Part shown: in pieces, positions 1 to 59,711 of the stretch
Numbering within the stretch: position 1 is the first letter of the stretch
Layout of the letters: each line of letters opens with the position of its first letter
Assembly: GCA_001821395.1 (NCBI GenBank)
Contig: MHLM01000001.1
Coordinates: forward strand, 64,001 to 128,000
Reading direction: 5' to 3'
DNA from: Candidatus Lloydbacteria bacterium RIFCSPHIGHO2_02_FULL_50_18
GTDB taxonomy: Bacteria > Patescibacteriota > Minisyncoccia > Phycocordibacterales > UBA6899
DNA: 64,000 nucleotides
Translations under genes and position numbers: made by a program
The notes under the pieces: generated by a model
The model's database searches: none
What the model was told of the DNA's origin: nothing
What the model saw: only the letters and a program-made list of their open reading frames with translations

Positions 1-463
1 ACATCGTGTGCCTGAGTTTCGGGGCGAGATCGCAAAGTGGATGATCAATAATTACTCAAAGAAAAAGGAGGGTATACCCGGGTATACGATGCTTGCCCCG
101 GGACTGCTATCGCTTATTCTTCCCTCACTCATCGGGAGATTCAACCTCGGGGGAGTTCTCTCAAAGCTCAACCATCTTTCCATTGCTTCTTCGTCAGGAG
201 TGATCATATTTTCCTCTAAAGACTCACCAAGCAGCTGGGTGCATGTGGGGATGCTATTTGCGAGAATGTCGCTTTCACTCAACGTCGAAAACATTCGCAC
301 CTCGGTCTATGTTGCCTCGATCGAAATGCCCGACATACGCAGTCGGTTAAAGGAGCTCTTGCCGACCGATGAAATGCCACAATTTGCTTGTGCGTTCGGT
401 TATCCGAAAGTTACCCTGCGCCAATCTCCTCGCCATGAACCTAAGGATCGTATGATACAATAG
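1..463 (+). CDS. Partial ORF, probably C-terminal part of a larger protein that begins upstream of the window; possible nitroreductase-fold (SagB/NfsB-like) C-terminus
   Basis: Open frame runs to position 1 with no in-window stop upstream (track start at a GTG, pos 8). Stop at 463 is 5 nt before the next gene. C-terminal 'FACAFGYPK' resembles the 'GYP' tail of nitroreductase-family proteins. The family assignment is weak. Confidence 0.3.
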   Translation, partial: HRVPEFRGEIAKWMINNYSKKKEGIPGYTMLAPGLLSLILPSLIGRFNLGGVLSKLNHLSIASSSGVIIFSSKDSPSSWVHVGMLFARMSLSLNVENIRTSVYVASIEMPDIRSRLKELLPTDEMPQFACAFGYPKVTLRQSPRHEPKDRMIQ

Positions 464-468
464 TTACG

Positions 469-1542
469 ATGAATTCACTCTCATTCGACAACCGGACATA
501 TACGCCGATCATCTTTTCAGGCATTGATGCAGGATCTGAATTTTTGCTGTTTCGCACGCAATGGGAAAAGGCGAATGGCGCCCTTATCATCGTTGATGAT
601 GAAAAAGAACAAGCAAAAGAATACGGATTGCTGAGAGATCCCTCACTACTTAAATCCGGCACCGAGCCGGAGAGCGACTCTACGCTCGAATTTATTTGGA
701 TCGTCATTCCTTGGAGAAAAACAGCAGTTCGGACACTCGCCAAAGATGCCTACCGATCACTTCGCTCCTCACGCAATCACGATCTGCTCACAAAGGATGA
801 GGCGAGTATTCTCTCAAAAAAAAGAATAGGCATTGCAGGACTCAACGTCGGCAACCCCGCGGCAATATGCCTTGCACAGGAGGGCATCGGTTCATATTTA
901 CGCATGGCGGACAATGACACACTTTCTCTTTCGAATCTTAATCGTTTTCGCGCGAGTATCGCAGATCTTGGTGTGAATAAGGCCGTACTTTCAGCTCGTC
1001 AGGCATACGAGATAGATCCTTTTCTCGAGATCGATGTTTGGGAGAACGGCGTAAGTCCTGAGAGCTTGTCCGAGTTCGTTAAGGGCATTGACCTCCTCAT
1101 TGAGGAGATGGACGCACCACCACTGAAGTTGGCGATACGGGAGGAAGCAAAGAGGCAACACGTCCCCACCATTATGATAACCGGCAATGGGCATGATATC
1201 ATCCTCGACATAGAACGTTTTGATACAGATCACGATCTACCACTTCTCTCGGGGAAGCTTACGAACGAAGTAAAGAGGCAGATAGCGCAGGGTCCAAAGA
1301 ACTTCAAAGAAAAGGTTGCGCTCGCTCAAGATTTTATGGGCAAAGAATATCTTTGCGAACGACTGAACTCCTCATTCCAGGAAGTAGGGGAGACGCTCAT
1401 CGGTATTCCCCAACTTGCGGAGGCTTCATTCCTACGCGGTGCCGTTCTCGCTCACGCATGTCGAGGCATCTTGCTCGGTGAGGAGGTCAAGAGCGGGAGG
1501 TATGCGTTCGGTTTGAGCGACCTTTATAATAAGCCCGTGTAA
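469..1542 (+). CDS. ThiF/MoeB/E1-like (ubiquitin-activating-like) adenylyltransferase-fold protein with ~115-aa N-terminal extension
   Basis: 'RIGIAGLNVGNPAAICLAQEGIG...MADNDTLSLSNLNRF' matches the E1/ThiF Rossmann motif plus downstream 'D.D.V..SNLNRQ' signature. 'IMITGNG' fits the ThiF core. 3 nt from the next gene. Confidence 0.6.
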   Translation: MNSLSFDNRTYTPIIFSGIDAGSEFLLFRTQWEKANGALIIVDDEKEQAKEYGLLRDPSLLKSGTEPESDSTLEFIWIVIPWRKTAVRTLAKDAYRSLRSSRNHDLLTKDEASILSKKRIGIAGLNVGNPAAICLAQEGIGSYLRMADNDTLSLSNLNRFRASIADLGVNKAVLSARQAYEIDPFLEIDVWENGVSPESLSEFVKGIDLLIEEMDAPPLKLAIREEAKRQHVPTIMITGNGHDIILDIERFDTDHDLPLLSGKLTNEVKRQIAQGPKNFKEKVALAQDFMGKEYLCERLNSSFQEVGETLIGIPQLAEASFLRGAVLAHACRGILLGEEVKSGRYAFGLSDLYNKPV

Positions 1543-1544
1543 AT

Positions 1545-3035
1545 ATGTCTGATTCTTTCAAGGATACTCTCTGTGCGCTTCATAATAGACCCGAGACTGA
1601 GTGGCAGCGACGTGGTGATGCGTTCATGCTGAAACTCTTTCGCGATACCGCAAAGAACGTTCCGGCATATAAAGCATTCTTACGATCACACGGCGTAACC
1701 CCTGGCTCCATCCGAGACATCGCCACATTCAAAAAAGAGATACCGCTCGTAAGTAAGGAGAATTATTTAAAGGTCTACCCGCTCAATGAACTGCTTCCCG
1801 CCGGCGATATCGCAGGTGCACAGATGATATCAACGAGTTCAGGGTCGTCCGGCATACCATTCTATTGGCCGCGCAGCACGCACAACATCGACGAGGCGGC
1901 GCTCATTCACGAACTATTTCTTGTCGACATATTTCACATCAACAAAAAGCGCACGCTTCTTGTGAACACCTTCGCGATGGGCATGTGGGTTGCCGGAACA
2001 ACGACATTTGAATCAGTTTCGCGCATTGCAGATAAATACCGCATAACCATGGTGACGCCGGGCATCGATATGGAGCAGATACTCACTACGATCAATGCAT
2101 TGGGAAAATATTACGAGCAGATCATCATTGCGGGCTATCCTCCCTTTGTAAAAGATATCATTGATATCGGCAAAGAACGCGGGATCAAATGGCAGAAACT
2201 TAATGTACGATTTCTTTTTGCCGCAGAATCATTTAGCGAAGATTGGCGCGAGCATATGCATAAACTGGTCGGCTGCAAGGATCCGTTATCGGGATCGATC
2301 AATATTTACGGCACCGCAGATGCTCTTTTGGTGGCGCACGAAACGCCGCTTTCAATACTCATTCGCAAGCTCGCAACAAAGAGCGGGCGTCTTCACAAGA
2401 AACTCTTCGGCCCCGATCTGCGTATTCCTACATTGGCGCAATGGAATCCCTCGATGCGCTATTTTGAAGAACTTCCGGACGCAAAGATCATTTTCTCCGC
2501 AAACAGCGGTATACCGCTCATTCGTTATGACATTGGGGATACAGGAAATATTCTACACATCAAGGAAACAGCTGACCTTCTTCGATCAGAAGGTGTCGAC
2601 TTAAAACACGAGGCGAAAGTTCACAATATTTCAAGGACGTTGTGGAATTTACCCATATTGACGATCTATGGTCGTGATCGCATGACCGCATCACTCTACG
2701 GTCTCAAAATCTATCCCGAGCACGTGCGTGGTGCACTCGAAGGCAAGACCGGAAGCAAGTATGCAACGGGGCGGTTCGTGATGACCACAAAACTTGATGC
2801 TGACCGGAACCAATACCTTGAGATACATATTGAGCTTCATTCAAAGATACAAAGCAATAAGAAGATCATCGAACATTTGCAGATGATCATGTTGAAACAA
2901 TTACGAGCCGTCAATAGCGAGTTTAAGCGGCTACACGAATCACTTGGTGAGCGTGCAGTACCCAAGATAGTCCTGCATCAAAATCAGACATCATCATTAT
3001 TCAGCCGCAAAGGGAAGCAGGTTTGGAAAGGCTAA
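1545..3035 (+). CDS. PaaK/CapK/coenzyme-F390-synthetase-like adenylate-forming enzyme
   Basis: 'ISTSSGSSGIPFYWP' is the P-loop-like SSGTTG(K)P adenylation motif of PaaK-type ligases. Length (496 aa) and overall layout fit that family. Operon-packed with neighbours. Confidence 0.55.
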   Translation: MSDSFKDTLCALHNRPETEWQRRGDAFMLKLFRDTAKNVPAYKAFLRSHGVTPGSIRDIATFKKEIPLVSKENYLKVYPLNELLPAGDIAGAQMISTSSGSSGIPFYWPRSTHNIDEAALIHELFLVDIFHINKKRTLLVNTFAMGMWVAGTTTFESVSRIADKYRITMVTPGIDMEQILTTINALGKYYEQIIIAGYPPFVKDIIDIGKERGIKWQKLNVRFLFAAESFSEDWREHMHKLVGCKDPLSGSINIYGTADALLVAHETPLSILIRKLATKSGRLHKKLFGPDLRIPTLAQWNPSMRYFEELPDAKIIFSANSGIPLIRYDIGDTGNILHIKETADLLRSEGVDLKHEAKVHNISRTLWNLPILTIYGRDRMTASLYGLKIYPEHVRGALEGKTGSKYATGRFVMTTKLDADRNQYLEIHIELHSKIQSNKKIIEHLQMIMLKQLRAVNSEFKRLHESLGERAVPKIVLHQNQTSSLFSRKGKQVWKG

Positions 3036-3044
3036 CGGCAATAC

Positions 3045-4670
3045 ATGTTATCTCTTACCATTGCCATCATCATATTGAACCTTTCTCTCGGACTAGCAAT
3101 TCTCGTCCAATCTAAGAGGGGTGTCGACGCGGGTGTTTTCTTTTTGATCACGCTGGCATTTTCCGCACTTACTATCGCAAATTATCTCTCACTTACCACC
3201 GATCCCAACGTCGCACTGTATTGGGTTCGCGCGGAGATGTTTATCGCCGCATGGCATACGTTCCTCTTCTTTGTCTTTGTCCACGCATTTGCAAAAAGTC
3301 ACTTTGAATATTCTCTCAAACACAGCCTCATCTTTACGGTACCATTCATCATCATCCTGGTGATCTCTGTCTCGCCCTACCTCTTTTCAGCCGTTGCCCT
3401 CAATAAGAACGGGCTCGTAGAGACGATCCCGGGGAATCTTTTCCCCGTCTTTGCCCTCTGGCTTCTGGGAACAATGTTCCTTTCAATGCGGCGTGTCGTC
3501 ATAAATTTCCGGTCAAGTACTGGTACATTGCGCTCGCAGTGGAAATATCTGCTCATTGGTTCGTGCTCGACCTACCTCTTGCTTATTATTTTCAACTTCA
3601 TTTTGGGGGGTTTTCTGCAAAACACAAGATTCCTTGCATACACTCCGATATTCTCCTTGCCTATTCTCTTTGCGACGGCATACGCGATCGTCAAACATAA
3701 CCTTTTTGATATTAAGGTTCTTGCGACTCAGGCATTCGTCACGATCATTTCGATCTTTTACCTCGTGAGAATCGTCGTTGCAACAACAATGACCGATCGC
3801 GTGATCGGCGGAGTGATCTTTGTCACAACGGTATTCTTTGGCTTCCTGCTCATTCGGAGTGTCAAAGAAGAGATTCGAGCGCGTGAAAAGATTGCACTTA
3901 TGGCGAAGAGCCTCACTGATACAAATTGGGAGTTGGCAAAATCGAACGAGCAGCTTCGCATCATCGACAAGCGCAAGAGCGAGTTTGTTTCCATCGTCTC
4001 ACATCAGTTGCGCACCCCGATCACTGCCATGAAGGGCTACTCATCGCTCCTTCTTGAGGATTCCTACGGACCCATCACCGATGCAGTTCGCGCTCCGATA
4101 GAAAAAATATTCGTGTCGTCAAAACGTCTCGCAGAGATGGTGACCGACTTCTTGAACATCTCGAAGATCGAACAAGGAACAATGACCTACACGTTGACCC
4201 CGGTTGATGTTGGTACAATGATCACGGATCTCACCGAAGAATTTATCCCCGTGGCGCGTCTCAAGAACATTAGACTGCAGGCTGATGTTCCGACCAGTGA
4301 GAAGTTCATCGTGAATGCTGACGATGGAAAACTTCGCCAAGTACTGTCAAATCTTATTGATAATTCGATCAAATATACACCGCAAGGCGGAGTAGACATT
4401 TCTGTTGAAACGTTGCTCGAGCGCGACCTTATCCTCATTAAGATCAAAGACACGGGTATCGGGCTTTCCCAAGAGGACATCCACCATCTCTTCGGTAAAT
4501 TTACCCGCGGTTCGGAAGGACAGCGGCACAACACTGATGGATCAGGGCTCGGTCTCTATGTAGCAAAGAAAATGCTCGAAGCACAAGGAGGAAATGTCTG
4601 GGTGGATTCAGAAGGCCCCGGCAAAGGTTCAACGTTCATCATTGAACTCCACAAGGAAGGAGAAAATTAA
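3045..4670 (+). CDS. Sensor histidine kinase with N-terminal multi-TM (7TM-type) sensor region
   Basis: About 7 hydrophobic segments in the N-terminal 290 aa. Canonical H-box 'VSHQLRTPITAMKGY'. HATPase_c G-boxes 'DTGIGL', 'GSGLGLYVAKKM', 'GGNVWVDSEGPGKGSTF'. Confidence 0.85.
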   Translation: MLSLTIAIIILNLSLGLAILVQSKRGVDAGVFFLITLAFSALTIANYLSLTTDPNVALYWVRAEMFIAAWHTFLFFVFVHAFAKSHFEYSLKHSLIFTVPFIIILVISVSPYLFSAVALNKNGLVETIPGNLFPVFALWLLGTMFLSMRRVVINFRSSTGTLRSQWKYLLIGSCSTYLLLIIFNFILGGFLQNTRFLAYTPIFSLPILFATAYAIVKHNLFDIKVLATQAFVTIISIFYLVRIVVATTMTDRVIGGVIFVTTVFFGFLLIRSVKEEIRAREKIALMAKSLTDTNWELAKSNEQLRIIDKRKSEFVSIVSHQLRTPITAMKGYSSLLLEDSYGPITDAVRAPIEKIFVSSKRLAEMVTDFLNISKIEQGTMTYTLTPVDVGTMITDLTEEFIPVARLKNIRLQADVPTSEKFIVNADDGKLRQVLSNLIDNSIKYTPQGGVDISVETLLERDLILIKIKDTGIGLSQEDIHHLFGKFTRGSEGQRHNTDGSGLGLYVAKKMLEAQGGNVWVDSEGPGKGSTFIIELHKEGEN

Positions 4671-4715: not shown

Positions 4716-5759
4716 ATGAGAAATACTGAGGATCGAGTACTGACGGGGGATAGACCGACCGGAAAGCTTCATTTGGGGCATTTTGCGGGCTCGATACAAA
4801 ATCGACTAAAGATCCAGAACGGTGAGCTCAAGTTCAAAAATCCAATTGAGCAAATTTTCTATATGGTGGCGGACGTGCAGGCACTCACTGACAATGCAGA
4901 CAACCCAGAAAAGGTGCGCTCATCGGTTCTTGAAGTGGCGCTCGACAATCTCGCATGCGGGATGAACCCCAAAAAAACAACGATGTTTATCCAGTCGCAG
5001 GTACCCGAGATTGCCGAACTCACTATTTTTTTTCTCAACCTAGTAACAGTATCTCGCCTCAAGCAAAATCCAACCGTAAAGACAGAGATCAAACAGAAGG
5101 GTTTTGGTGAGAACGTTCCGGCGGGATTTCTTGCATACCCAGTCTCTCAGGCGGCTGATATTCTTACCTTTAAAGCGAATCTCATCCCGGTAGGAGAAGA
5201 TCAGAAGCCAGTCATCGAGCAGGCTAATGAATTGGGTGCTAAATTTAACTCAATGTATGGAGAAACATTTTCTTATATCACCCCGCTGCTACCTCCAAAG
5301 AATTCACCGGAATCTCGCATGCCAGGGATCGATGGCAAGGCAAAGATGTCAAAATCATTGGGGAATGCGATCTTTCTCGCTGATTCGGAAAAAGAGATCG
5401 AACAGAAGGTCATGCAAATGTATACCGACCCGAGCCATATCCATCTCGCAGATCCGGGTGAGGTCAAAGGAAATGTTGTCTTCACCTATCTTGATGTATT
5501 CGATCCAAAGAAAAAGGAGGTTGCGGAGTTAAAAAAACAGTATAAAAAAGGAGGGCTTGGCGACGTCGTGCTGAAAAAACGCCTTGCGGCCGTACTGAAC
5601 GAGATGCTCATGCCCATCCGAGAACGACGTGAGGAGCTTGCACGCAATCCAAAGCATATTATGGACATCCTTGAGGCGGGAACAAAAGAAGCACGTCATA
5701 CCGCAAAAGCTACTCTCGCCGAAGTTCGCGAACATATGAAGATCGATTATTTCGGGTAG
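4716..5759 (+). CDS. trpS: Tryptophanyl-tRNA synthetase
   Basis: Class I motifs 'TGDRPTGKLHLGHF' (HIGH-type) and 'KMSKSLGN'. The 347-aa length fits TrpRS rather than TyrRS. Confidence 0.85.
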   Translation: MRNTEDRVLTGDRPTGKLHLGHFAGSIQNRLKIQNGELKFKNPIEQIFYMVADVQALTDNADNPEKVRSSVLEVALDNLACGMNPKKTTMFIQSQVPEIAELTIFFLNLVTVSRLKQNPTVKTEIKQKGFGENVPAGFLAYPVSQAADILTFKANLIPVGEDQKPVIEQANELGAKFNSMYGETFSYITPLLPPKNSPESRMPGIDGKAKMSKSLGNAIFLADSEKEIEQKVMQMYTDPSHIHLADPGEVKGNVVFTYLDVFDPKKKEVAELKKQYKKGGLGDVVLKKRLAAVLNEMLMPIRERREELARNPKHIMDILEAGTKEARHTAKATLAEVREHMKIDYFG

Positions 5760-5939
5760 CCGAAAATGATCTTGTTCAAAAATATAAAACCCCACATTGT
5801 GTGGAGATTTTTCGATTCATTTCGACAGATTTATCTGAAAAAATGCTACCATTGCGAATAGCAGTCATCCATGGGGTACCTGAGACGAATATCTGTGATG
5901 ACTTTGCATATAACCGATAATTCGCTACTATAGAACATT

Positions 5940-7334
5940 ATGACCACACGAACACTGATAGAAAATTTAAAGGATTCCATCGGGGAAACCGTCACCATTG
6001 CGGGATGGGTCGACATACGACGCGATCATGGCAAGCTCATTTTTATCGATATGCGCGATGCAACGGGAAAGGTGCAGGCAGTAGCGCTTCCGAACCATAT
6101 CGAGGCACATGAAGCTGCGAACATGCTTCGTCCCGAATGGGTAGTCGAGATAGAGGGAAAGGTGAATGCGCGACCTGAAAAAATGGTCAAAAAGGACGAA
6201 CTAAACGGAATGCTTGAAATCGAGATAGTTTCGGTCAAAGTGCTCAATAAGTCTGAGACACCGCCGATCGACGTACGCGGGGACGGCCGCGATATCGGAG
6301 AAGAGGTGCGACTCAAATATCGTTATCTCGACCTTCGTCGCCCCAGGCTCCAGCAGAATTTACGTTTGCGACACAAGATCGTACTGTTCATCCGAAATTT
6401 TCTTTCGAACAATGGATTCATTGAGATTGAAACCCCGCTTCTTTCTAAATCAACGCCGGAAGGATCACGCGACTTTCTTGTTCCCTCACGACTCGAGCAG
6501 GGGAAGTTTTACGCGTTACCCCAGTCACCGCAGCAATACAAGCAGCTCCTTATGGTTGCGGGATTTGAGAGGTATTTCCAATTTGCGCGTTGTATGCGCG
6601 ATGAAGATACACGAGGAGACCGCCAACCCGAATTTACTCAACTCGATATGGAGTTGAGCTTCGTCGATCGTGAGGATGTCATGGCCTTGAACGAACAACT
6701 ACTTATCGAGCTCGTGCAAAAGACTGCCCCCCACAAGAAGATCCAGCAGATCCCATTTCCTCGTATGACCTACGCCGAGGCGATGAAGAACTATGGGAAC
6801 GACAAGCCGGATATCCGTACCGACAAAAATGACCCCGACCTGCTCGCATTCTGTTGGGTAATTGATTTTCCTTTCTTCGAAAAAGCCGATAAGGGAGGAT
6901 GGACGTTCACACACAATCCATTCTCAGCCGCAAAAGAAGAACATCGCGAATGGTTAATGAACAAAGAACATATCGAGGAGATCTTAACGACGCAGTATGA
7001 TGTTGCCCTAAACGGTTTTGAGATCGGCGGAGGCAGTATCCGCAATCATGACCCCAAGGCGCTTAGTTGTGTATTTGAGATCATGGGGCATAAAGAAGAG
7101 GACATTAAAGCAAATTTCGGGCACATGCTTGACGCTTTTTCCTACGGAGCACCCCCACACGGCGGTATCGCATGGGGACTCGACCGTCTCATGGCAATCC
7201 TCCAGAATGAACCGAACATTCGCGAGGTGATCGCATTTGCCAAGACCGGAGAAGGGAAGGACCTCATGATGGCCGCACCGTCAGACGTTTCACCCGAACA
7301 GCTTGTCGAGTTAGGTATACATATTGTGAAGTGA
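5940..7334 (+). CDS. aspS: Aspartyl-tRNA synthetase (short form without GAD insertion; possibly non-discriminating)
   Basis: N-terminal OB fold. Class II motif 2 'FYALPQSPQQYKQLLMVAGFERYFQFARCMRDEDTRGDRQPEFTQLDMELSF'. Motif 3 'GGIAWGLDRLMAIL'. Confidence 0.85.
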   Translation: MTTRTLIENLKDSIGETVTIAGWVDIRRDHGKLIFIDMRDATGKVQAVALPNHIEAHEAANMLRPEWVVEIEGKVNARPEKMVKKDELNGMLEIEIVSVKVLNKSETPPIDVRGDGRDIGEEVRLKYRYLDLRRPRLQQNLRLRHKIVLFIRNFLSNNGFIEIETPLLSKSTPEGSRDFLVPSRLEQGKFYALPQSPQQYKQLLMVAGFERYFQFARCMRDEDTRGDRQPEFTQLDMELSFVDREDVMALNEQLLIELVQKTAPHKKIQQIPFPRMTYAEAMKNYGNDKPDIRTDKNDPDLLAFCWVIDFPFFEKADKGGWTFTHNPFSAAKEEHREWLMNKEHIEEILTTQYDVALNGFEIGGGSIRNHDPKALSCVFEIMGHKEEDIKANFGHMLDAFSYGAPPHGGIAWGLDRLMAILQNEPNIREVIAFAKTGEGKDLMMAAPSDVSPEQLVELGIHIVK

Positions 7335-8840: not shown

Positions 8841-9578
8841 ATGGAACTCGCAAAAGCCATATCTGCCTTATTGTTTTATCAAGCTGAGCCGATCACGGTA
8901 AAAAGGCTTTCCGGACTGCTCAAGCGGTCAGAAGAAGAAATTCGTGATGCCATAGCATCTCTTCCGGAGCGATTTAAGGATACCGGTATCATGCTCGTCC
9001 AAAATGGGGATGAAATCACACTCGGTACTGCATCTGAAGCAAGTTCGCTCATTGAGAGCATCACGAAGGAAGAACTATCGAAGGACCTATCAAAATCGGC
9101 ACTTGAGACGCTTGCGATCGTGCTGTACAAAGGTCCAATCACGAGAAGTGAGATCGACTATATTCGCGGAGTGAATTCAACATTTATTCTTCGAAACCTG
9201 CTTATCCGTGGCCTCGTCGAAAAAGTAGACAATCCGAATGACCAGCGCAGCTTTCTGTATAAACCGACATTCCAGCTCCTTGAGTACATGGGTGTTCCTG
9301 ACGTCAAAGACTTGCCCGACTATCATGATACACTCGTACAACTTGGATCATTTGTTGCCATAAAACAAGAAGAGGAAAAAACAGAAGGAACGGCGGTTAG
9401 TGCACCTCTCGCGATCGTTCCAGATGATAGCACCGATATCGCAGATACCGCTCGTGCTATGGAATTGAGTGATGAGGAACTTATCGAGGAGGCGGATATT
9501 GCCGAGGAAGACGAGGCGGGCGGGGGGTACGATGACCCTGAACTTCGCGCACACACTGACGCCGATCGACCCGAGTAA
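8841..9578 (+). CDS. scpB: Segregation and condensation protein B
   Basis: Follows scpA. Tandem winged-helix pattern 'GPITRSEIDYIRGVNSTFILRNLLIRGLVEKV'. Acidic C-terminal tail. Confidence 0.75.
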   Translation: MELAKAISALLFYQAEPITVKRLSGLLKRSEEEIRDAIASLPERFKDTGIMLVQNGDEITLGTASEASSLIESITKEELSKDLSKSALETLAIVLYKGPITRSEIDYIRGVNSTFILRNLLIRGLVEKVDNPNDQRSFLYKPTFQLLEYMGVPDVKDLPDYHDTLVQLGSFVAIKQEEEKTEGTAVSAPLAIVPDDSTDIADTARAMELSDEELIEEADIAEEDEAGGGYDDPELRAHTDADRPE

Positions 9579-47974: not shown

Positions 47975-50023
47975 TCAAACGAATGGTAAGTACACCGACA
48001 CGGTCGTCCCTGCTCCCAATTCGGATTCAATAGTGATGATTCCACTGTTTTCTTCTATGTTATTCTTGATGGTCAGCAGACCTAATTGGGGCACTTTTGC
48101 GTATTCGACACTTATTGATTTCGGGGTAGGAGCATATATTTTTAACATATCCTCCTTAGAAATTCCGAGCCCGTTATCTCTAATGATCGTTTTGAAATAT
48201 TTTCCCGCAGCATCATGTTCAATAAATATATCTCCGCCGCGCTTACTGAATTTGATTGCGTTATCCAGCAGACCTGCAAATGATCGTTCGATCAATTCCG
48301 GATCATCGACCAGAACGTGAACGAAGGTTTCGGGCGGTTCATAGTGGATAGCCACCTCCGACAGAGAAGCAGAGGGGACCAGACGGGCCTGCAGACTCTT
48401 GAGCATCGTTACGAGGTCAAATATCATTTTATGTCTAATGTTCGCACCCTCGATCTCATCAAGGAGGCCGTCTACCATTTGCGTTATTTCTTGCGAAGCA
48501 TCAACAATAAGGCTGATCCCCATCGACATGTCCGGAATGAGCGCCGTGATCTTCTGTCGCGCATCATTGAATTGCTTAGCTACGGAATTGATGATGATAA
48601 GAGGGGGCTTCAATTCCTGAATGACACTTGCAATCAAGTCTGTTTTTCTCTTTTCTAACAATAATTCTTCTGTTGTGTTTCTTAAAGTTACGATGCATCC
48701 GGTCACGACATTATTGTCATTCTTTATCGGCGCGGCGCTGCTCACGACCGATACTTCATTTCCTCCTTTGTCGACGATCACAGTATGATCTTCCGAAGAT
48801 CTTTTTTCTCCACCAAGCATCGCCTCTTCAATGAACAATATGTTCGCTTTTTTATCACCCACTCTCACCAGTTTCACAATATCCTTAAAATTCTGACCCA
48901 TCGCCTCCTCGTCCGTGATATCGGTAAAATCTTCCATTACATTATTCCAAAGCGCTATCTTCCAATTTCTATCTATTACCAACATGCCGTCACTGATACT
49001 ATTAAGATAGACCTTCTCCCTACGGCGCAATTCGCTCGAGACGGAAAATATTTTCAAGACTAGCAGCGTAAGCAACAATAGAAATAATCCGACTATAATG
49101 TCCACAAAAGCCACGTGCGTCAAACTGGAATAATAGTCCGCAAAAGCAAACTGTGTCGGACGTTGAACGACAACGCCCCATTTGTACTCGGGAATTTGCC
49201 CGTACGCAGAAAGCGCCTCCTCGCCCCCCATTTCATCATAGGTAATCTCTACGAAGCTTTTGCCACTCAATACTTCTTTTACCGCACTGACCTGCGAATA
49301 ATTAACAAACCCATTATTGAGATCAAAATACGGATGCACGAGCAGGTTGCCATTCTTATCTATAAGATAGGTAAAACCGCCGGGTCCAACATCAACATTA
49401 CGGATCCACGCGGCAATTTTATCCAGTGAAGTTTGAACAAGAAGATATCCGACAACAACGTTCTTTTCGTCACGCACCGGCGCGGCGACGACAGTAACAT
49501 ACACTTCTGGGTGGATTCCCCTTTTGAACACCCCGCTAATTTCTAGCTTTCCCGTAACCGTAATATTTTTGTACCATTCACGATCAGCACGACTTTGTCC
49601 GATGATCGACGGATCGGCAGGATACACATCAATAAGTATGCCGGCTGGATCGAGCAGTGCAACGCCAACAACATCAGAATTACCCATGGCGATATTCCCT
49701 AACAAAAGACTGTTTTTATCCCATTTTGCCTCCTTTGTGTAGTTTACGATATTTGCCTTCGACGCATGCGTAATGACAAGATCCTCAAGAAGATCCAACC
49801 TTGGGGTTACAATGCTCTTCGTATGTTCAACAAGTGCAGCACTGCGCTCATACACGTCAGTTCTCAATACATTCCGATAGGTGACAAAATCATATCCGGT
49901 TGCCAAAATATATGGAACCATTACTGCGAGAATGATCAACAGCCTACTTCTCCAGGAGGTTGGTTCTACAAAGGAAACACTATTGGACACTCGTTTCAGA
50001 ACCTCTTTGACCATATTTAGCAA
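47975..50023 (-). CDS. Membrane sensor, Cache-like domain + PAS + histidine-kinase-like module with canonical HATPase_c but Gln at the H-box position
   Basis: TM-bounded ~270-aa extracellular domain. PAS 'ISDGMLVIDRNWKIALWNN...'. DHp 'SVIQELKPPLIIINSVAKQF'. ATPase N/G1/G2 'LLDNAIKFSKRGG', 'DNGLGI', 'GAGTTVSVYLP'. C-terminal ~180 aa paralogous to 45105-46925. Confidence 0.75.
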   Translation of the reverse strand: MLNMVKEVLKRVSNSVSFVEPTSWRSRLLIILAVMVPYILATGYDFVTYRNVLRTDVYERSAALVEHTKSIVTPRLDLLEDLVITHASKANIVNYTKEAKWDKNSLLLGNIAMGNSDVVGVALLDPAGILIDVYPADPSIIGQSRADREWYKNITVTGKLEISGVFKRGIHPEVYVTVVAAPVRDEKNVVVGYLLVQTSLDKIAAWIRNVDVGPGGFTYLIDKNGNLLVHPYFDLNNGFVNYSQVSAVKEVLSGKSFVEITYDEMGGEEALSAYGQIPEYKWGVVVQRPTQFAFADYYSSLTHVAFVDIIVGLFLLLLTLLVLKIFSVSSELRRREKVYLNSISDGMLVIDRNWKIALWNNVMEDFTDITDEEAMGQNFKDIVKLVRVGDKKANILFIEEAMLGGEKRSSEDHTVIVDKGGNEVSVVSSAAPIKNDNNVVTGCIVTLRNTTEELLLEKRKTDLIASVIQELKPPLIIINSVAKQFNDARQKITALIPDMSMGISLIVDASQEITQMVDGLLDEIEGANIRHKMIFDLVTMLKSLQARLVPSASLSEVAIHYEPPETFVHVLVDDPELIERSFAGLLDNAIKFSKRGGDIFIEHDAAGKYFKTIIRDNGLGISKEDMLKIYAPTPKSISVEYAKVPQLGLLTIKNNIEENSGIITIESELGAGTTVSVYLPFV

Positions 50024-50182: not shown

Positions 50183-53100
50183 CTAATCCAGCTTTTTAGT
50201 CCCTCGTTTTGCGATCATTCCGGAAAGCGGGAACAAACAAGCAAATACCGTGTCCTCACCGACCTTTGATGTGAACCAGATCTTCCCGCCCGCATTTTCG
50301 ACGATCTGCTTCACAACATACAGCCCGAGCCCTGTACCATCCACGTCCTGTTTTTGGGCATTACTTGCCCGAAACATCTTCTGAAATATCTGTGACTGTT
50401 CACCTTCGGGGATCGGCTCTCCGTTGTTTGACACACTAAAGATGACGTTGCCGCCGTCAGCATGAAGCACTACCGTGATTCTCCCATTATCCTGGGTGTA
50501 CTTAACCGCATTCGAAATAAAATTCTGAAACACCACACGCAGCAGCTTCGCATCGGCAGGGATGATCGGTAATTGCGCGTCGAAGTGCGTGATCATCTGA
50601 TGACCTTTTTGTGCGATACGTCCCTCCATTTCCTTGAGTACCTCATTGCACACTGCGACGAAATCAGTCGGCGTCGGCTCAACGATGAAGACGCCCATCT
50701 CAATACGAGAAACATTGAGGAGTGCGTGGATCAATTCGTTGATACGCGTATTCAGAGAGTAAGTCTCACGCAATATCTCCTTCTGATTATCGGGCATTTC
50801 ACCGTAATCACCATCCAAGAGCATCTCAAGATTCCACTGTATCGCGCCGACTGGAGTCTTTAATTGGTGCGAAGCGAGTGAGACAAATTCGGTTTTTTCC
50901 CTATCGACGATCGATTCTTTCGTGATGTCCCAATTCACACCAACCATCTTGATTGCCTTTCCGTCACCGTCACGCTCGACGAGCGCATGGTCTTGAATAT
51001 AATGCGTTTCCCCACTTGGCCATATGATACGAAATTGCATATTGAACTCCTTTTCACCTCTTAGTGCCGCCTGGATAGCATCGTCTCTCAATTTTTTGTC
51101 ATCAGGGTGCAGTCTTTTTTGCCACGCCTCGAACGTTCTCTCGGACTCTTCTTTCGACATTGCGTACAGCGCGTACATTTGATCATTCCATGAGATCTTG
51201 TCTTTTGTGATATCCCATTCCCACACACCGATCTGTGCCGACTCGGTTGCAAGAGCCAGTCTCCGCGATACTTTTGCAAGATTCTCTTTTTCGCTTTCAA
51301 CGTCATCTAAAATATTAAGCACTGCTTTTTTGGTATTTTCCAGTTCGGCAATATTTGTCACGAGGTCACTGTTCGCATTTTCCGCATACGCGATCGCCTG
51401 TTTTTTTGACCGTGCAGTCACATATATCACACCAAAAAGCGCAAAGCTCATTAACAGGCCGACCACGACAATGAGGTAGCGCAACACGGCATAGGTACGG
51501 CCATTCGGAAGTAATGGCGCATTAGTAAATTCGATCGTCCATGGGTGATCAGCCACATACATCGTTACCGTAGTTCTGAACGTAAGATCCGACGCCCACC
51601 CCTCTACGCCCTCGCTCGCATCGAACATTAATCGTTCGGGAAGCATTCGCAGTCCGTCATAGATGCGGAATGTGATGTCCGCGCTTTTGAAAGCCTGACT
51701 TCCGCGTACAAGTTCGGCGGCATCGATCACGCTGAACACATAACCGAAGACGCTTTCTGGCTGCCGGGAAACACTGCCAGACGCAACATCGCCCCAATGT
51801 ACGGGGGCGTACGCGACGAAACCCGCCTTCATGCCTGCCCCCTCCTGTTGCATCAACATCACTCGGCCGGAGATAGAGGCCTCACCAGAGGCGCTTGCCG
51901 ACGCCATCGCACTGCGCCTCGTCTTCTCCGTAGACATATCAAAACCTATGGACCGACGATCCATTTCCGTAGGGGGCTCCACATAAAGAATGGGTGTATA
52001 TGCACTTCTCTCGCCTTCGGGTGTGATAACAAAATCAGGAAGCCCCTCTTTGCGCATAGAAGCAATGAATGCATCTTTTTCATCGGATGAAACGATCTGT
52101 GCAAATCCCAAACCCTGTATGCCGGGATAATTCTTGAACACTTTGATCGCCGTAAGATATGCACGCCATTCATCTCTGCTTACGGTTTGACTCGCAGCAA
52201 AGAGGCCTCCGGTTCCTCGGAGCGTATTGACGTAGATCTCCATCTGCTTTTGAATGTTAGCGCTGATCTCAGCGACCTCAGTAGCGAAATGAGACTGCTT
52301 TTCCTTCTCAGCATTTGCTTCAAATAAATAATACACGACAAACGTGATCGCGATGCTCACAATAAATATGATCAGAGCGATCCAATTTTCCCTCCAGAAA
52401 TTTTTGACCATTGTTACTTGTCGAATGTACATTAACATGAACAAAACGAGAAGAAGGAGCAAGAATGGGACTCCGAACTGAAAGAAAATGATCTTATTTC
52501 GCTCTTGTTCCGCCATTTGTACGTGCGCCCGGACACTTTCATCTGTATATGTATTTAAAAATTGGTTATATGGCAGCGATCTTTCACCGGTCTTTATGTC
52601 AAAATAAAAATAATCTATTGAAAAATCTTCCATTTTCACGACGTGACCAGAGATCGGTTCGATCCACATAAAAAGATCGCTTGAGAGCTTTACCCCGCGG
52701 GTCTCCGGTACCCCGGGAAGGAATCCCATGAGCTCCGTTTGGTCGGTCGGCTCAATATTGCTTTTTTGGTACTTGAATACTTTTAACCCGTACAAGGTCT
52801 CCTCACCTACGTACTTCATCTGTGAAGGAGTGTTGTTGCTTGCATGCCAGTACGTGAAAGAACTACCCCCCTTGAGCCATCTGGGCGCAAAAAGATACCC
52901 GTCCCTATCTCTATCTCCGGCACCCCTTACGTGTTGCCCGTTCAGCGCATTTATCCCATAGAGTGGCTCTGCGCGAAAGATGGTCTTTCCGTCCAGTGAT
53001 GCGACGTGAAATATATTTTTTATCGTGAAGATGAATCCCGCATACGAAACGACCTCATAAGAAAAATCCGTTTTGGAGTATTGTTCAGCACCAAATTCAC

Positions 53101-53290
53101 CAATGGATGCATCATAAAAATTATCAACAGACACCATGTCCGCCTTGTACGTAAAATCGCTCGGTATCATCAATAGATACGGGGCGACAAGAAAATACCA
53201 TAACGGGACAAATAGCAAGACTGCAAAAGAAAATATGTTCCTGCGCACATATTGAATAAAGGCTGTGATCGTATGTTTTATCTTATCCAT
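50183..53290 (-). CDS. Large multi-domain sensor histidine kinase: extracellular domain, CHASE domain, PAS, HisKA, HATPase_c (1035 aa)
   Basis: CHASE pattern 'RDEWRAYLTAIKVFKNYPGIQGLGFAQIV...ILYVEPPTEMDRRSIGFDMSTEKTRRSAMASASASGEASISGRVMLMQQ'. PAS_3 'WEWDITKDKISWNDQMYALY'. Canonical H-box 'LASHQLKTPVGAI'. 'GTGLGLYVVKQIVENAGGKIWFTSKVGEDTVF'. Confidence 0.8.
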   Translation of the reverse strand: MDKIKHTITAFIQYVRRNIFSFAVLLFVPLWYFLVAPYLLMIPSDFTYKADMVSVDNFYDASIGEFGAEQYSKTDFSYEVVSYAGFIFTIKNIFHVASLDGKTIFRAEPLYGINALNGQHVRGAGDRDRDGYLFAPRWLKGGSSFTYWHASNNTPSQMKYVGEETLYGLKVFKYQKSNIEPTDQTELMGFLPGVPETRGVKLSSDLFMWIEPISGHVVKMEDFSIDYFYFDIKTGERSLPYNQFLNTYTDESVRAHVQMAEQERNKIIFFQFGVPFLLLLLVLFMLMYIRQVTMVKNFWRENWIALIIFIVSIAITFVVYYLFEANAEKEKQSHFATEVAEISANIQKQMEIYVNTLRGTGGLFAASQTVSRDEWRAYLTAIKVFKNYPGIQGLGFAQIVSSDEKDAFIASMRKEGLPDFVITPEGERSAYTPILYVEPPTEMDRRSIGFDMSTEKTRRSAMASASASGEASISGRVMLMQQEGAGMKAGFVAYAPVHWGDVASGSVSRQPESVFGYVFSVIDAAELVRGSQAFKSADITFRIYDGLRMLPERLMFDASEGVEGWASDLTFRTTVTMYVADHPWTIEFTNAPLLPNGRTYAVLRYLIVVVGLLMSFALFGVIYVTARSKKQAIAYAENANSDLVTNIAELENTKKAVLNILDDVESEKENLAKVSRRLALATESAQIGVWEWDITKDKISWNDQMYALYAMSKEESERTFEAWQKRLHPDDKKLRDDAIQAALRGEKEFNMQFRIIWPSGETHYIQDHALVERDGDGKAIKMVGVNWDITKESIVDREKTEFVSLASHQLKTPVGAIQWNLEMLLDGDYGEMPDNQKEILRETYSLNTRINELIHALLNVSRIEMGVFIVEPTPTDFVAVCNEVLKEMEGRIAQKGHQMITHFDAQLPIIPADAKLLRVVFQNFISNAVKYTQDNGRITVVLHADGGNVIFSVSNNGEPIPEGEQSQIFQKMFRASNAQKQDVDGTGLGLYVVKQIVENAGGKIWFTSKVGEDTVFACLFPLSGMIAKRGTKKLD

Positions 53291-59306: not shown

Positions 59307-59711
59307 TTATTTTTTTTGAAATAATTGTTCGACCCTTCTAATAACCTCGGCGATCGGCGTATCGGATTTGGAAATAAAGTCTGTAGCCCCCAGTGAGCGC
59401 GCCTTCTTCTCGTCTTCTTCCTGACTAAGATTCGACAAAACGAGAATGGGTATCTTGTTGTTTTTTTTCTGTAATCGTTCAAGGACCTCAAAGCCGTTCA
59501 CGATAGGCATGATGAGGTCGCACACGAGAAGATCAAAATGAGAGCGTTCAATCAAGGAGAGCGCCTCTTCTCCGTTCGGCACACTCTCCGCATAAAAACC
59601 CGAATTTTGGAGTTTTAAAACAAGCGCACGTGAATACGCCCTTTCATCCTCAGCAATAAGAATCCTCTTCTTACTTTTCTCACTTGGCGGCATCAATAAA
59701 GTGTAACACAA
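59307..59711 (-). CDS. Stand-alone CheY-like response-regulator receiver (PilH-like)
   Basis: 'KRILIAEDE', phospho-acceptor 'LLVCDLIMP', 'VLSNL...K' Lys. No output domain. First gene of the pilus operon. Confidence 0.8.
   Translation of the reverse strand: MCYTLLMPPSEKSKKRILIAEDERAYSRALVLKLQNSGFYAESVPNGEEALSLIERSHFDLLVCDLIMPIVNGFEVLERLQKKNNKIPILVLSNLSQEEDEKKARSLGATDFISKSDTPIAEVIRRVEQLFQKK

Follow-up and report, generated by a model that had tools for sequence, protein, structure and literature searches.

A conserved Patescibacteria gene cassette with a candidate oxazolone-synthetase pair, a predicted adenylate-forming ligase and a seven-transmembrane histidine kinase

The bacteria of the Candidate Phyla Radiation (CPR; Patescibacteria) account for a large share of bacterial diversity, have tiny genomes and show an unexplained dependence on host cells, and a run of enzyme genes in one of them, ending in a sensor kinase, raises the question of what such an organism might be making. 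The genes lie at the start of a 64,000-nucleotide stretch of Candidatus Lloydbacteria bacterium RIFCSPHIGHO2_02_FULL_50_18, of the Parcubacteria within the CPR (contig MHLM01000001.1, positions 64,001 to 128,000; hereafter the window), where four closely packed genes occupy positions 1–4670 of the plus strand: the 3′ end of a gene for a flavoenzyme (FDO), followed by genes for a ThiF-like protein, a predicted adenylate-forming (ANL) ligase and a histidine kinase with a seven-transmembrane (7TM) sensor. The original prediction, made from the letters of this stretch alone, had set the three enzyme open reading frames (ORF1 to ORF3) 3–6 nt apart with the kinase 10 nt further on, which was essentially right (the ORF calls give spacers of 5, 2 and 9 nt), and had looked for their function in the maturation of azol(in)e-bearing peptides that are ribosomally synthesised and then modified after translation (RiPPs), or in conjugation to a ubiquitin-like protein (Ubl) or carrier protein. 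The evidence assembled here points elsewhere. Because ORF2 falls in the Rv1355c clade and ORF1 is an FDO of the Acg type, the two prove, by their family matches, to be homologous to the oxazolone synthetases TrzS, TyzB/TyzC and OxzB, in a split form with the order swapped, and they belong to a cassette that is conserved across many lineages of Patescibacteria, in shuffled order and with multiple fusions. On balance, we lean slightly towards a cassette that would be a variant oxazolone synthetase, in which the ligase replaces the acyltransferase of the known systems and an oxazolone-type product is coupled to the kinase.

The window begins in the middle of this cassette, and its upstream end is supplied by a public 190-kb contig with the same DNA (L001), on which position 1 of the window is position 9533. 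There, ORF1 is complete (L001:8982–9995, 337 amino acids, its start lying 551 nt upstream of the window), and 16 nt before it lies a gene for a dehydrogenase of the Glu/Leu/Phe/Val family, which, among proteins of solved structure, comes nearest to leucine dehydrogenase (E 1.5e-60), ahead of tryptophan dehydrogenase (2e-51) and phenylalanine dehydrogenase (2e-40). The cassette thus has five genes in the order Leu/Trp-type dehydrogenase, FDO, ThiF-like protein, ANL ligase and 7TM kinase, the four enzyme genes spanning L001:7875–12567. An exact-sequence look-up placed the same ORF2/ORF3 DNA on 14–18 public contigs from the Rifle aquifer and other groundwater metagenomes, and the cassette ORFs are real genes and not chance reading frames, because identical proteins occur on these 14–18 independent contigs and homologues in hundreds.

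The enzymes of the cassette

Oxazolone synthetases were discovered only in 2021–2025. In Mycobacterium and Rhodococcus, TrzS (Rv1355c) is a ThiF cyclase fused to an FDO, and it turns N-acyl-tryptophan into N-acyl tryptazolone by an ATP-dependent cyclisation followed by an O2-dependent desaturation, the acyl-tryptophan being supplied by TrzA (Rv1356c), an acyl-CoA N-acyltransferase (PMC12856293). The same chemistry is carried out on N-acyl-tyrosine by TyzA/TyzB/TyzC (Rv2336–Rv2338c), giving tyrazolone (PMC10404671), and by OxzA/OxzB of Pseudoalteromonas rubra (10.1101/2020.06.11.147165; PMC12596934).

The placement of the cassette beside these systems begins with the ThiF-like protein (ORF2, 469–1542, plus strand, 357 amino acids). 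Its ThiF domain (PF00899, E 5.9e-16) covers residues 106–235 and leaves an N-terminal extension of about 105 residues, and its match to the PRK07877 “Rv1355c family” model reaches 271 bits (model positions 33–337 of 722), as against at most 68 bits for any MoeB, ThiF, TcdA or related ThiF-family model; the ThiF/MoeB models gave 26–62 bits where their cut-offs are 152–647. The ThiF half of a Rhodococcus qingshengii protein, annotated in RefSeq as Rv1355c family, aligns at 40% identity over 287 amino acids (E 1e-55), and this alignment begins at ORF2 residue 59 and hence spans the N-terminal extension, which on this comparison is therefore a hallmark common to the Rv1355c (TrzS) clade; the protein had been correctly named ThiF-like, but the extension, put at about 115 residues, is not the unusual feature it had been taken for. 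An EExD motif is common to ORF2 and the Rhodococcus protein, and, judged against E. coli ThiF, the adenylation site is intact: D215 lines up with that enzyme's catalytic Asp, whose counterpart in TrzS is D217, and conservation extends to the Lys and to the Arg of SNLNR. By its sequence, ORF2 is a member of the Rv1355c/TrzS clade of ThiF proteins and is the predicted cyclase of an oxazolone-synthetase pair, and the earlier view that it has no housekeeping role in thiamin or molybdopterin synthesis is borne out by the weak MoeB/ThiF scores and with the lack of ThiS or MoaD genes nearby.

The flavoenzyme is represented in the window by the last 153 of its 337 codons (ORF1, 1–463, plus strand, open at the 5′ end, with its stop at 463). 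Even this tail matches the C-terminal half of NF047509, the Acg-family FMN-binding oxidoreductase model (E 4.8e-18), and the full-length protein reaches 189.6 bits (E 9.6e-56) against a model cut-off of 199; it also matches the FDO half of the Rv1355c model (positions 381–552) and the solved structure of Acg (PDB 2YMV, E 7.9e-5). The SagB model TIGR03605 gave no match at E ≤ 0.1, the models matched being those of Acg, PRK07877 and PRK14851 only. The expectation of a nitroreductase or SagB-like protein was accordingly half borne out: ORF1 is, by these profile matches, a member of the nitroreductase superfamily, but of the Acg/FDO type and not SagB.

The third enzyme (ORF3, 1545–3035, plus strand, 496 amino acids) matches PaaK weakly in sequence (TIGR02155, E 1.3e-8, 33.8 bits against a cut-off of 646). 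An AlphaFold2 model built with 30 homologues (pLDDT 88.8, pTM 0.88) was matched by Foldseek to 4r1l, 2y27 and 2y4o, together the structures of PaaK1, PaaK2 and BT_0428, at E values of about 2e-22 and TM scores of 0.63–0.72, then to 2-hydroxyisobutyryl-CoA ligase (HCL), and after that to the condensing enzymes ClxA and McbA. The SSGSSG P-loop, YGTAD and RYxIGD are invariant among the 30 homologues and the C-terminal Lys491 is nearly so, which we take to signify an intact adenylation site. The model thus supports the assignment of ORF3 as a PaaK-fold adenylate-forming ligase, as had been predicted from its sequence. It has the two-domain fold and core motifs of PaaK, BT_0428 and ClxA; unlike them, it has no paa genes nearby, its identity to them is 14–17%, and its own family, distinct from theirs and found mainly in the CPR, lacks a Pfam model and has at least 554 representatives at 50% identity and E ≤ 1e-30.

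When set beside the known oxazolone systems, the cassette is alike in its core and unlike in its company. TrzA/TrzS has the same pairing of a ThiF-like ATP-dependent cyclase with an Acg-like flavin oxidase, and ORF2 has the family-specific N-terminal extension, the G-loop variant and the catalytic Asp of TrzS; in the window, however, the two enzymes come from separate genes with the FDO before ThiF, the scores lie under the family equivalog cut-off, and the host is a CPR bacterium and not an actinomycete. The split architecture is that of TyzB/TyzC, in which a stand-alone ThiF homologue adjoins a stand-alone FDO of ~340–370 amino acids, but TyzA, an acyl-homoserine-lactone-synthase-like acyltransferase that uses lauroyl-CoA, is missing from the cassette, and the tyz genes have no linked kinase or dehydrogenase. 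OxzAB, the founding case in which ThiF and nitroreductase-superfamily chemistry act together on a small N-acyl amino acid, differs in its fused OxzB, its N-acyltransferase OxzA, its proteobacterial host and its fatty-acyl tyrazolone products. In place of a TrzA-type acyltransferase, the conserved partners here are the ligase, a dehydrogenase or aminotransferase, and the 7TM kinase.

Conservation of the cassette

The call for a conservation survey of what looked like an under-characterised system proved well placed. Relatives of the ligase, scanned in one genome per species, were found in at least 556 genomes, and the survey took the best 80 loci by ligase score, which were searched using the proteins of the window together with profiles made for neighbours that recur; their ORFs came from a simple greedy calling, by which a few genes were missed (e.g., the FDO in L010). 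About three quarters of these 80 loci bear the name of a Patescibacteria lineage, the named lineages including Lloyd-, Yanofsky-, Magasanik-, Andersen-, Doudna-, Nealson-, Roizman-, Gottesman-, Woese-, Uhr-, Adler- and Liptonbacteria and Saccharimonadales, and the remainder are labelled “bacterium”, “uncultured Gammaproteobacteria” (third-party assemblies), Actinomycetota or Chloroflexia. A ThiF gene lies beside the ligase gene in 70 of the 80. Full flanks, meaning 4 kb or more upstream and 5 kb or more downstream, are available for 41 loci, nearly all of them from Patescibacteria; in this set the ligase is accompanied by a ThiF gene in 40, by a homologous 7TM kinase in 36 and by an FDO in 31, so that the enzyme genes and the kinase, which had been seen as one unit in the window, hold together as one in related genomes. 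An amino-acid dehydrogenase is present in 19 of the 41 and a class I/II aminotransferase in 11, one or the other in 29, and both together in one locus only (one-sided Fisher p = 0.004, kinship ignored). Since the two coincide only once, they look like a non-orthologous displacement of a single step, the interconversion of an amino acid and a 2-oxo acid. A CheY-like receiver accompanies the ligase in 19 of the 41 loci and an alpha/beta hydrolase in nine.

The order of the genes is shuffled among lineages into at least eight arrangements, and the partners are joined in many ways. ThiF~FDO fusions, which have the architecture of TrzS, occur in six related loci, and their CPR examples reach 377–382 bits on the Rv1355c model. 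Other fusions are dehydrogenase~FDO, ANL~ThiF, ThiF~ANL and dehydrogenase~ANL, and one protein of 1242 amino acids joins dehydrogenase, ANL and ThiF in that order. The hydrolase, which is missing from the window’s own cassette, is fused to ThiF or to the FDO in L025, L043, L056 and L070; as a separate gene of ~290–320 codons it stands between ThiF or FDO and the kinase in L020, L022, L029, L042 (11227–12108), L047, L062, L066, L071 and L075. Neighbours resembling MurD, MurI, FolD, tryptophanyl-tRNA synthetase (TrpRS), arginyl-tRNA synthetase, bactofilin or a lipid kinase were considered as cassette members and, judged from their sequences, rejected as lineage-local housekeeping synteny.

An acyl-CoA N-acyltransferase was sought at three scales. 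Across the 80 loci, no family of this kind turns up repeatedly; none is found among the genes from dnaJ to trpS around the cassette, all of which are accounted for; and phmmer searches of the 64-kb window with a putative neighbour in the TrzA position and a Streptomyces GNAT neighbour matched nothing, these searches being of low sensitivity.

Ligase homologues also occur in other company. Those of ~40% identity outside CPR, in Actinomycetota (L068, L078, L087) and Chloroflexia (L086), have no ThiF, FDO or kinase neighbours; the actinomycete homologues have nearby, as judged by eye, a regulator resembling ArsR or a secreted protein of the beta-lactamase kind, and no clue to a substrate was found in these four stand-alone loci. 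In one unclassified metagenome-assembled genome (L064:5751–11443), a homologue of 542 amino acids lies directly downstream of genes for a SagB-type nitroreductase (PF00881), a YcaO protein (PF02624) and a DUF2268 protease-like protein, a genuine context of the thiazole/oxazole-modified microcin (TOMM) kind, unlike the other 79 loci.

The flanks of the cassette itself hold housekeeping genes. On L001, the dehydrogenase gene is preceded by dnaJ, dnaK and grpE and then by ribosomal protein genes, and a promoter-like TTGAAG-18-TATAAT (10 of 12 positions) lies at L001:7843–7872, at the end of dnaJ and directly before the dehydrogenase gene; if this site is used, the dehydrogenase probably starts at an ATG ~30 nt downstream of the called start. 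Promoter and terminator scans of the locus gave counts no better than those from shuffled sequence. Downstream of the kinase follow trpS (4716–5759) and aspS (5940–7334), spanning 4716–7334. A TrpRS gene after the cassette is also found in the closest relative (L011) and not in other lineages, and the adjacency of trpS therefore seems to reflect local synteny rather than a tie of function.

A predicted route to an oxazolone, and its rivals

In the proposed pathway, the dehydrogenase or aminotransferase would interconvert a hydrophobic amino acid and its 2-oxo acid and so provide one building block, most economically the acyl donor. The ligase would adenylate a carboxylic acid and couple it, with no need of CoA, to an amino acid, so that an N-acyl amino acid results; we infer that this acylation, driven by ATP, takes the place of the acyl-CoA N-acyltransferase. 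The presence of CoA-independent condensing enzymes (ClxA and McbA) among its structural neighbours argues for a CoA-free ligase, and such a route would suit CPR organisms, since these are generally held to be without fatty-acid synthesis and without pools of fatty-acyl-CoA. The ThiF-like enzyme would then adenylate the alpha-carboxylate, upon which the amide oxygen would close an oxazol-5(4H)-one ring; the FDO would desaturate the bond between C-alpha and C-beta; and the resulting lipophilic, reactive oxazolone would be coupled to the intramembrane-sensing kinase, which would either sense the product or control its synthesis. The domain order of the dehydrogenase~ANL~ThiF fusion agrees with consecutive steps. 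In the lineages that have it, the alpha/beta hydrolase might, as a speculation, open or transfer the azlactone.

Several points weigh against this proposal. The known systems are marked by a third component, the acyl-CoA N-acyltransferase, which helps to define them and is missing here, and its replacement is our reading of an ANL enzyme that could instead be a CoA ligase. The Rv1355c equivalog cut-off (NF005901, 476 bits) is reached by no CPR protein, neither by ORF2 with its 271 bits nor by the CPR fusions with their 377–382; by these scores the CPR proteins are related to the Rv1355c family but form a separate subfamily, and their substrate and product may for that reason differ from those of the family. 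The FDO is, by sequence, the more divergent half of the pair, its match to the FDO domain of the Rhodococcus Rv1355c-family protein being weak (22% identity, E 2e-7). Known FDO chemistry needs O2, while many members of the CPR are taken to be fermenters living without oxygen. The step assigned to the dehydrogenase or aminotransferase can be read in either direction, and its role likewise. The cassette has no response regulator adjoining it in the window, the nearest receiver ORF being at 59307–59711 on the minus strand, and the adjacency of a kinase does not by itself establish that it senses the product. Finally, what is known of the CPR members comes from their genes.

Of the rival explanations, the one that survives best, though we consider it unlikely, is a route of amino-acid catabolism or salvage, in which a 2-oxo acid made by the dehydrogenase or aminotransferase would be oxidatively decarboxylated by the FDO to an aryl- or alkyl-acetate and converted by the PaaK-like enzyme to a CoA thioester, with the kinase as regulator and the ThiF-like protein as an accessory. 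Catabolic routes classically begin with a dehydrogenase or an aminotransferase, the dehydrogenase is found fused to the FDO, and the nearest solved structures to the ligase are phenylacetate-CoA and other acyl-CoA ligases. Against these stand the ligase’s score on the PaaK model, far below its cut-off (33.8 bits against 646), and the lack of recurrent downstream genes of the paa or beta-oxidation type; above all, such a route would leave unexplained the ThiF-like protein, which is the most constant partner of the ligase and is fused to it in both orders.

Somewhat less probable still is the modification of a macromolecule or of the cell envelope by the ThiF-like protein, FDO and ligase, with a tRNA nucleoside (as for TcdA), a peptide C-terminus (as for MccB or PaaA) or a lipid head group as the target. 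ThiF-like enzymes act mostly on proteins, peptides or tRNA (PMC12596934), and the best solved-structure matches of ORF2 are to TcdA, the tRNA enzyme that forms ct6A (E 2e-8). The likeness to TcdA is, however, generic to the Rossmann core, whereas that to Rv1355c is stronger by some 47 orders of magnitude in E value and runs through the family-specific N- and C-terminal regions, and substrates in the form of free amino or oxo acids are what the conserved dehydrogenase or aminotransferase would indicate.

The two readings that had been put forward at the outset fare worse. Activation of a Ubl or sulfur carrier, as by MoeB, ThiF, Cap2 or Bil-type enzymes, with conjugation or thiocarboxylation to follow, would account for the E1 Rossmann fold of ORF2 and its generic ThiF, MoeB and Cap2 matches, yet these are weak (at most 68 bits on NCBIfam models and 41.7 bits in PADLOC, as against 271 for Rv1355c); no ThiS, MoaD, Ubl, E2 or JAB gene is found in 20 kb of locus context or recurs in related loci, and the Rv1355c family acts on small N-acyl amino acids (PMC12856293) and not on the peptides or proteins that either early reading would call for. 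We therefore regard it as very improbable. An anti-phage E1–E2 system of the Cap2 kind was rejected as well, PADLOC giving generic Rossmann-domain matches only, at 41.7 bits or less, with no E2 part. As for a TOMM cassette, where a YcaO and a precursor encoded just upstream would act together with an E1-like protein for docking and a dehydrogenase of the SagB type, the presence of an E1-like protein beside one of the nitroreductase superfamily gives a superficial likeness, and the unrelated L064 genome does set a ligase homologue beside a true SagB-type nitroreductase and YcaO, but the idea is effectively refuted for this locus and is the least probable of all, because the upstream genes are the dehydrogenase, 16 nt away, and then dnaJ, dnaK and grpE, the intergenic gaps of 2–16 nt leave no space for a precursor peptide or other small ORF, no YcaO lies within 10 kb upstream or 10 kb downstream of the cassette on L001, no YcaO-sized conserved gene family occurs in the 80 loci apart from L064, ORF1 is of the Acg/FDO type with no SagB match, and ORF2 is placed in a small-molecule clade.

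The kinase and a possible signalling circuit

What remains of the question is the part played by the sensor kinase (3045–4670, plus strand, 541 amino acids), whose domains are HisKA_7TM (PF16927, E 1.6e-9), HisKA (PF00512, E 2.5e-15) and HATPase_c (PF02518, E 5.3e-27). Its residues 1–270 are taken up by hydrophobic segments with short loops and no sizeable extracytoplasmic domain, which suggests that sensing would be intramembrane. The kinases that neighbour the ligase gene in related loci align with it from the N-terminus of the 7TM region in 61 of 68 matches, and by these alignments the cassette kinases are orthologous through the 7TM sensor; longer variants carry a GAF insertion. The only candidate partner for the kinase in the window is the distant receiver noted above, a single-domain CheY-like protein (PF00072, E 2.5e-23). 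Two more histidine-kinase-like ORFs lie far from the cassette (47975–50023 and 50183–53290, both on the minus strand). In a related Lloydbacteria locus (L010:11496–14149), the kinase downstream of the cassette is split into three ORFs of 274, 244 and 321 amino acids, as would be expected from a frameshift, from a pseudogene or from faulty assembly, together with a second kinase.

There are precedents for such an arrangement, in that the autoinducer synthase genes of CqsA/CqsS and LuxM/LuxN stand beside those of polytopic membrane kinases without a large periplasmic domain. The likeness lies in a small-molecule enzyme next to a polytopic kinase; there is no sequence relationship, and sensing by the cassette kinase is conjecture. 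The physiological role of oxazolones has been the subject of speculation about signalling by the authors of the TrzAS study, in which genes for cyclic di-GMP (c-di-GMP) were also linked to trzAS in M. tuberculosis (PMC12856293). An echo of that link is found on the Rhodococcus qingshengii plasmid pLP1 (L090:1713–6037), where a TrzS-like gene of the Rv1355c family adjoins a GGDEF-domain gene and a divergent gene for a hypothetical protein of 260 amino acids without a Pfam match. We found no literature that links oxazolones or this gene set to CPR bacteria: the oxazolone papers searched make no mention of CPR bacteria, ligases or kinases, and the key CPR papers searched make none of ThiF, nitroreductases, histidine kinases or quorum sensing.

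A further possibility, more tentative than the pathway itself and one that we would put forward as a doubtful but attractive extension, is that the cassette is a self-contained CPR signalling circuit, in which an amino-acid-derived autoinducer of the oxazolone type, built without CoA, would be read by its dedicated 7TM kinase and would let CPR cells communicate with one another, or an epibiont with its host. If true, this would be the first physiological role for biological oxazolones. Relative to the oxazolone systems reported so far, what is new is the three conserved parts, i.e., the ligase, the dehydrogenase or aminotransferase and the 7TM kinase, and that one orthologous sensor kinase would have been co-inherited with the cassette across lineages of Parcubacteria, Microgenomates and Saccharibacteria. 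The cassette also gives a context to a ligase family that has at least 554 representatives and no Pfam model. For the CPR bacteria, which have almost no known specialised metabolism, it offers a small-molecule pathway as a concrete and testable candidate, and with it a natural experiment by which oxazolones may be tied to signal transduction.

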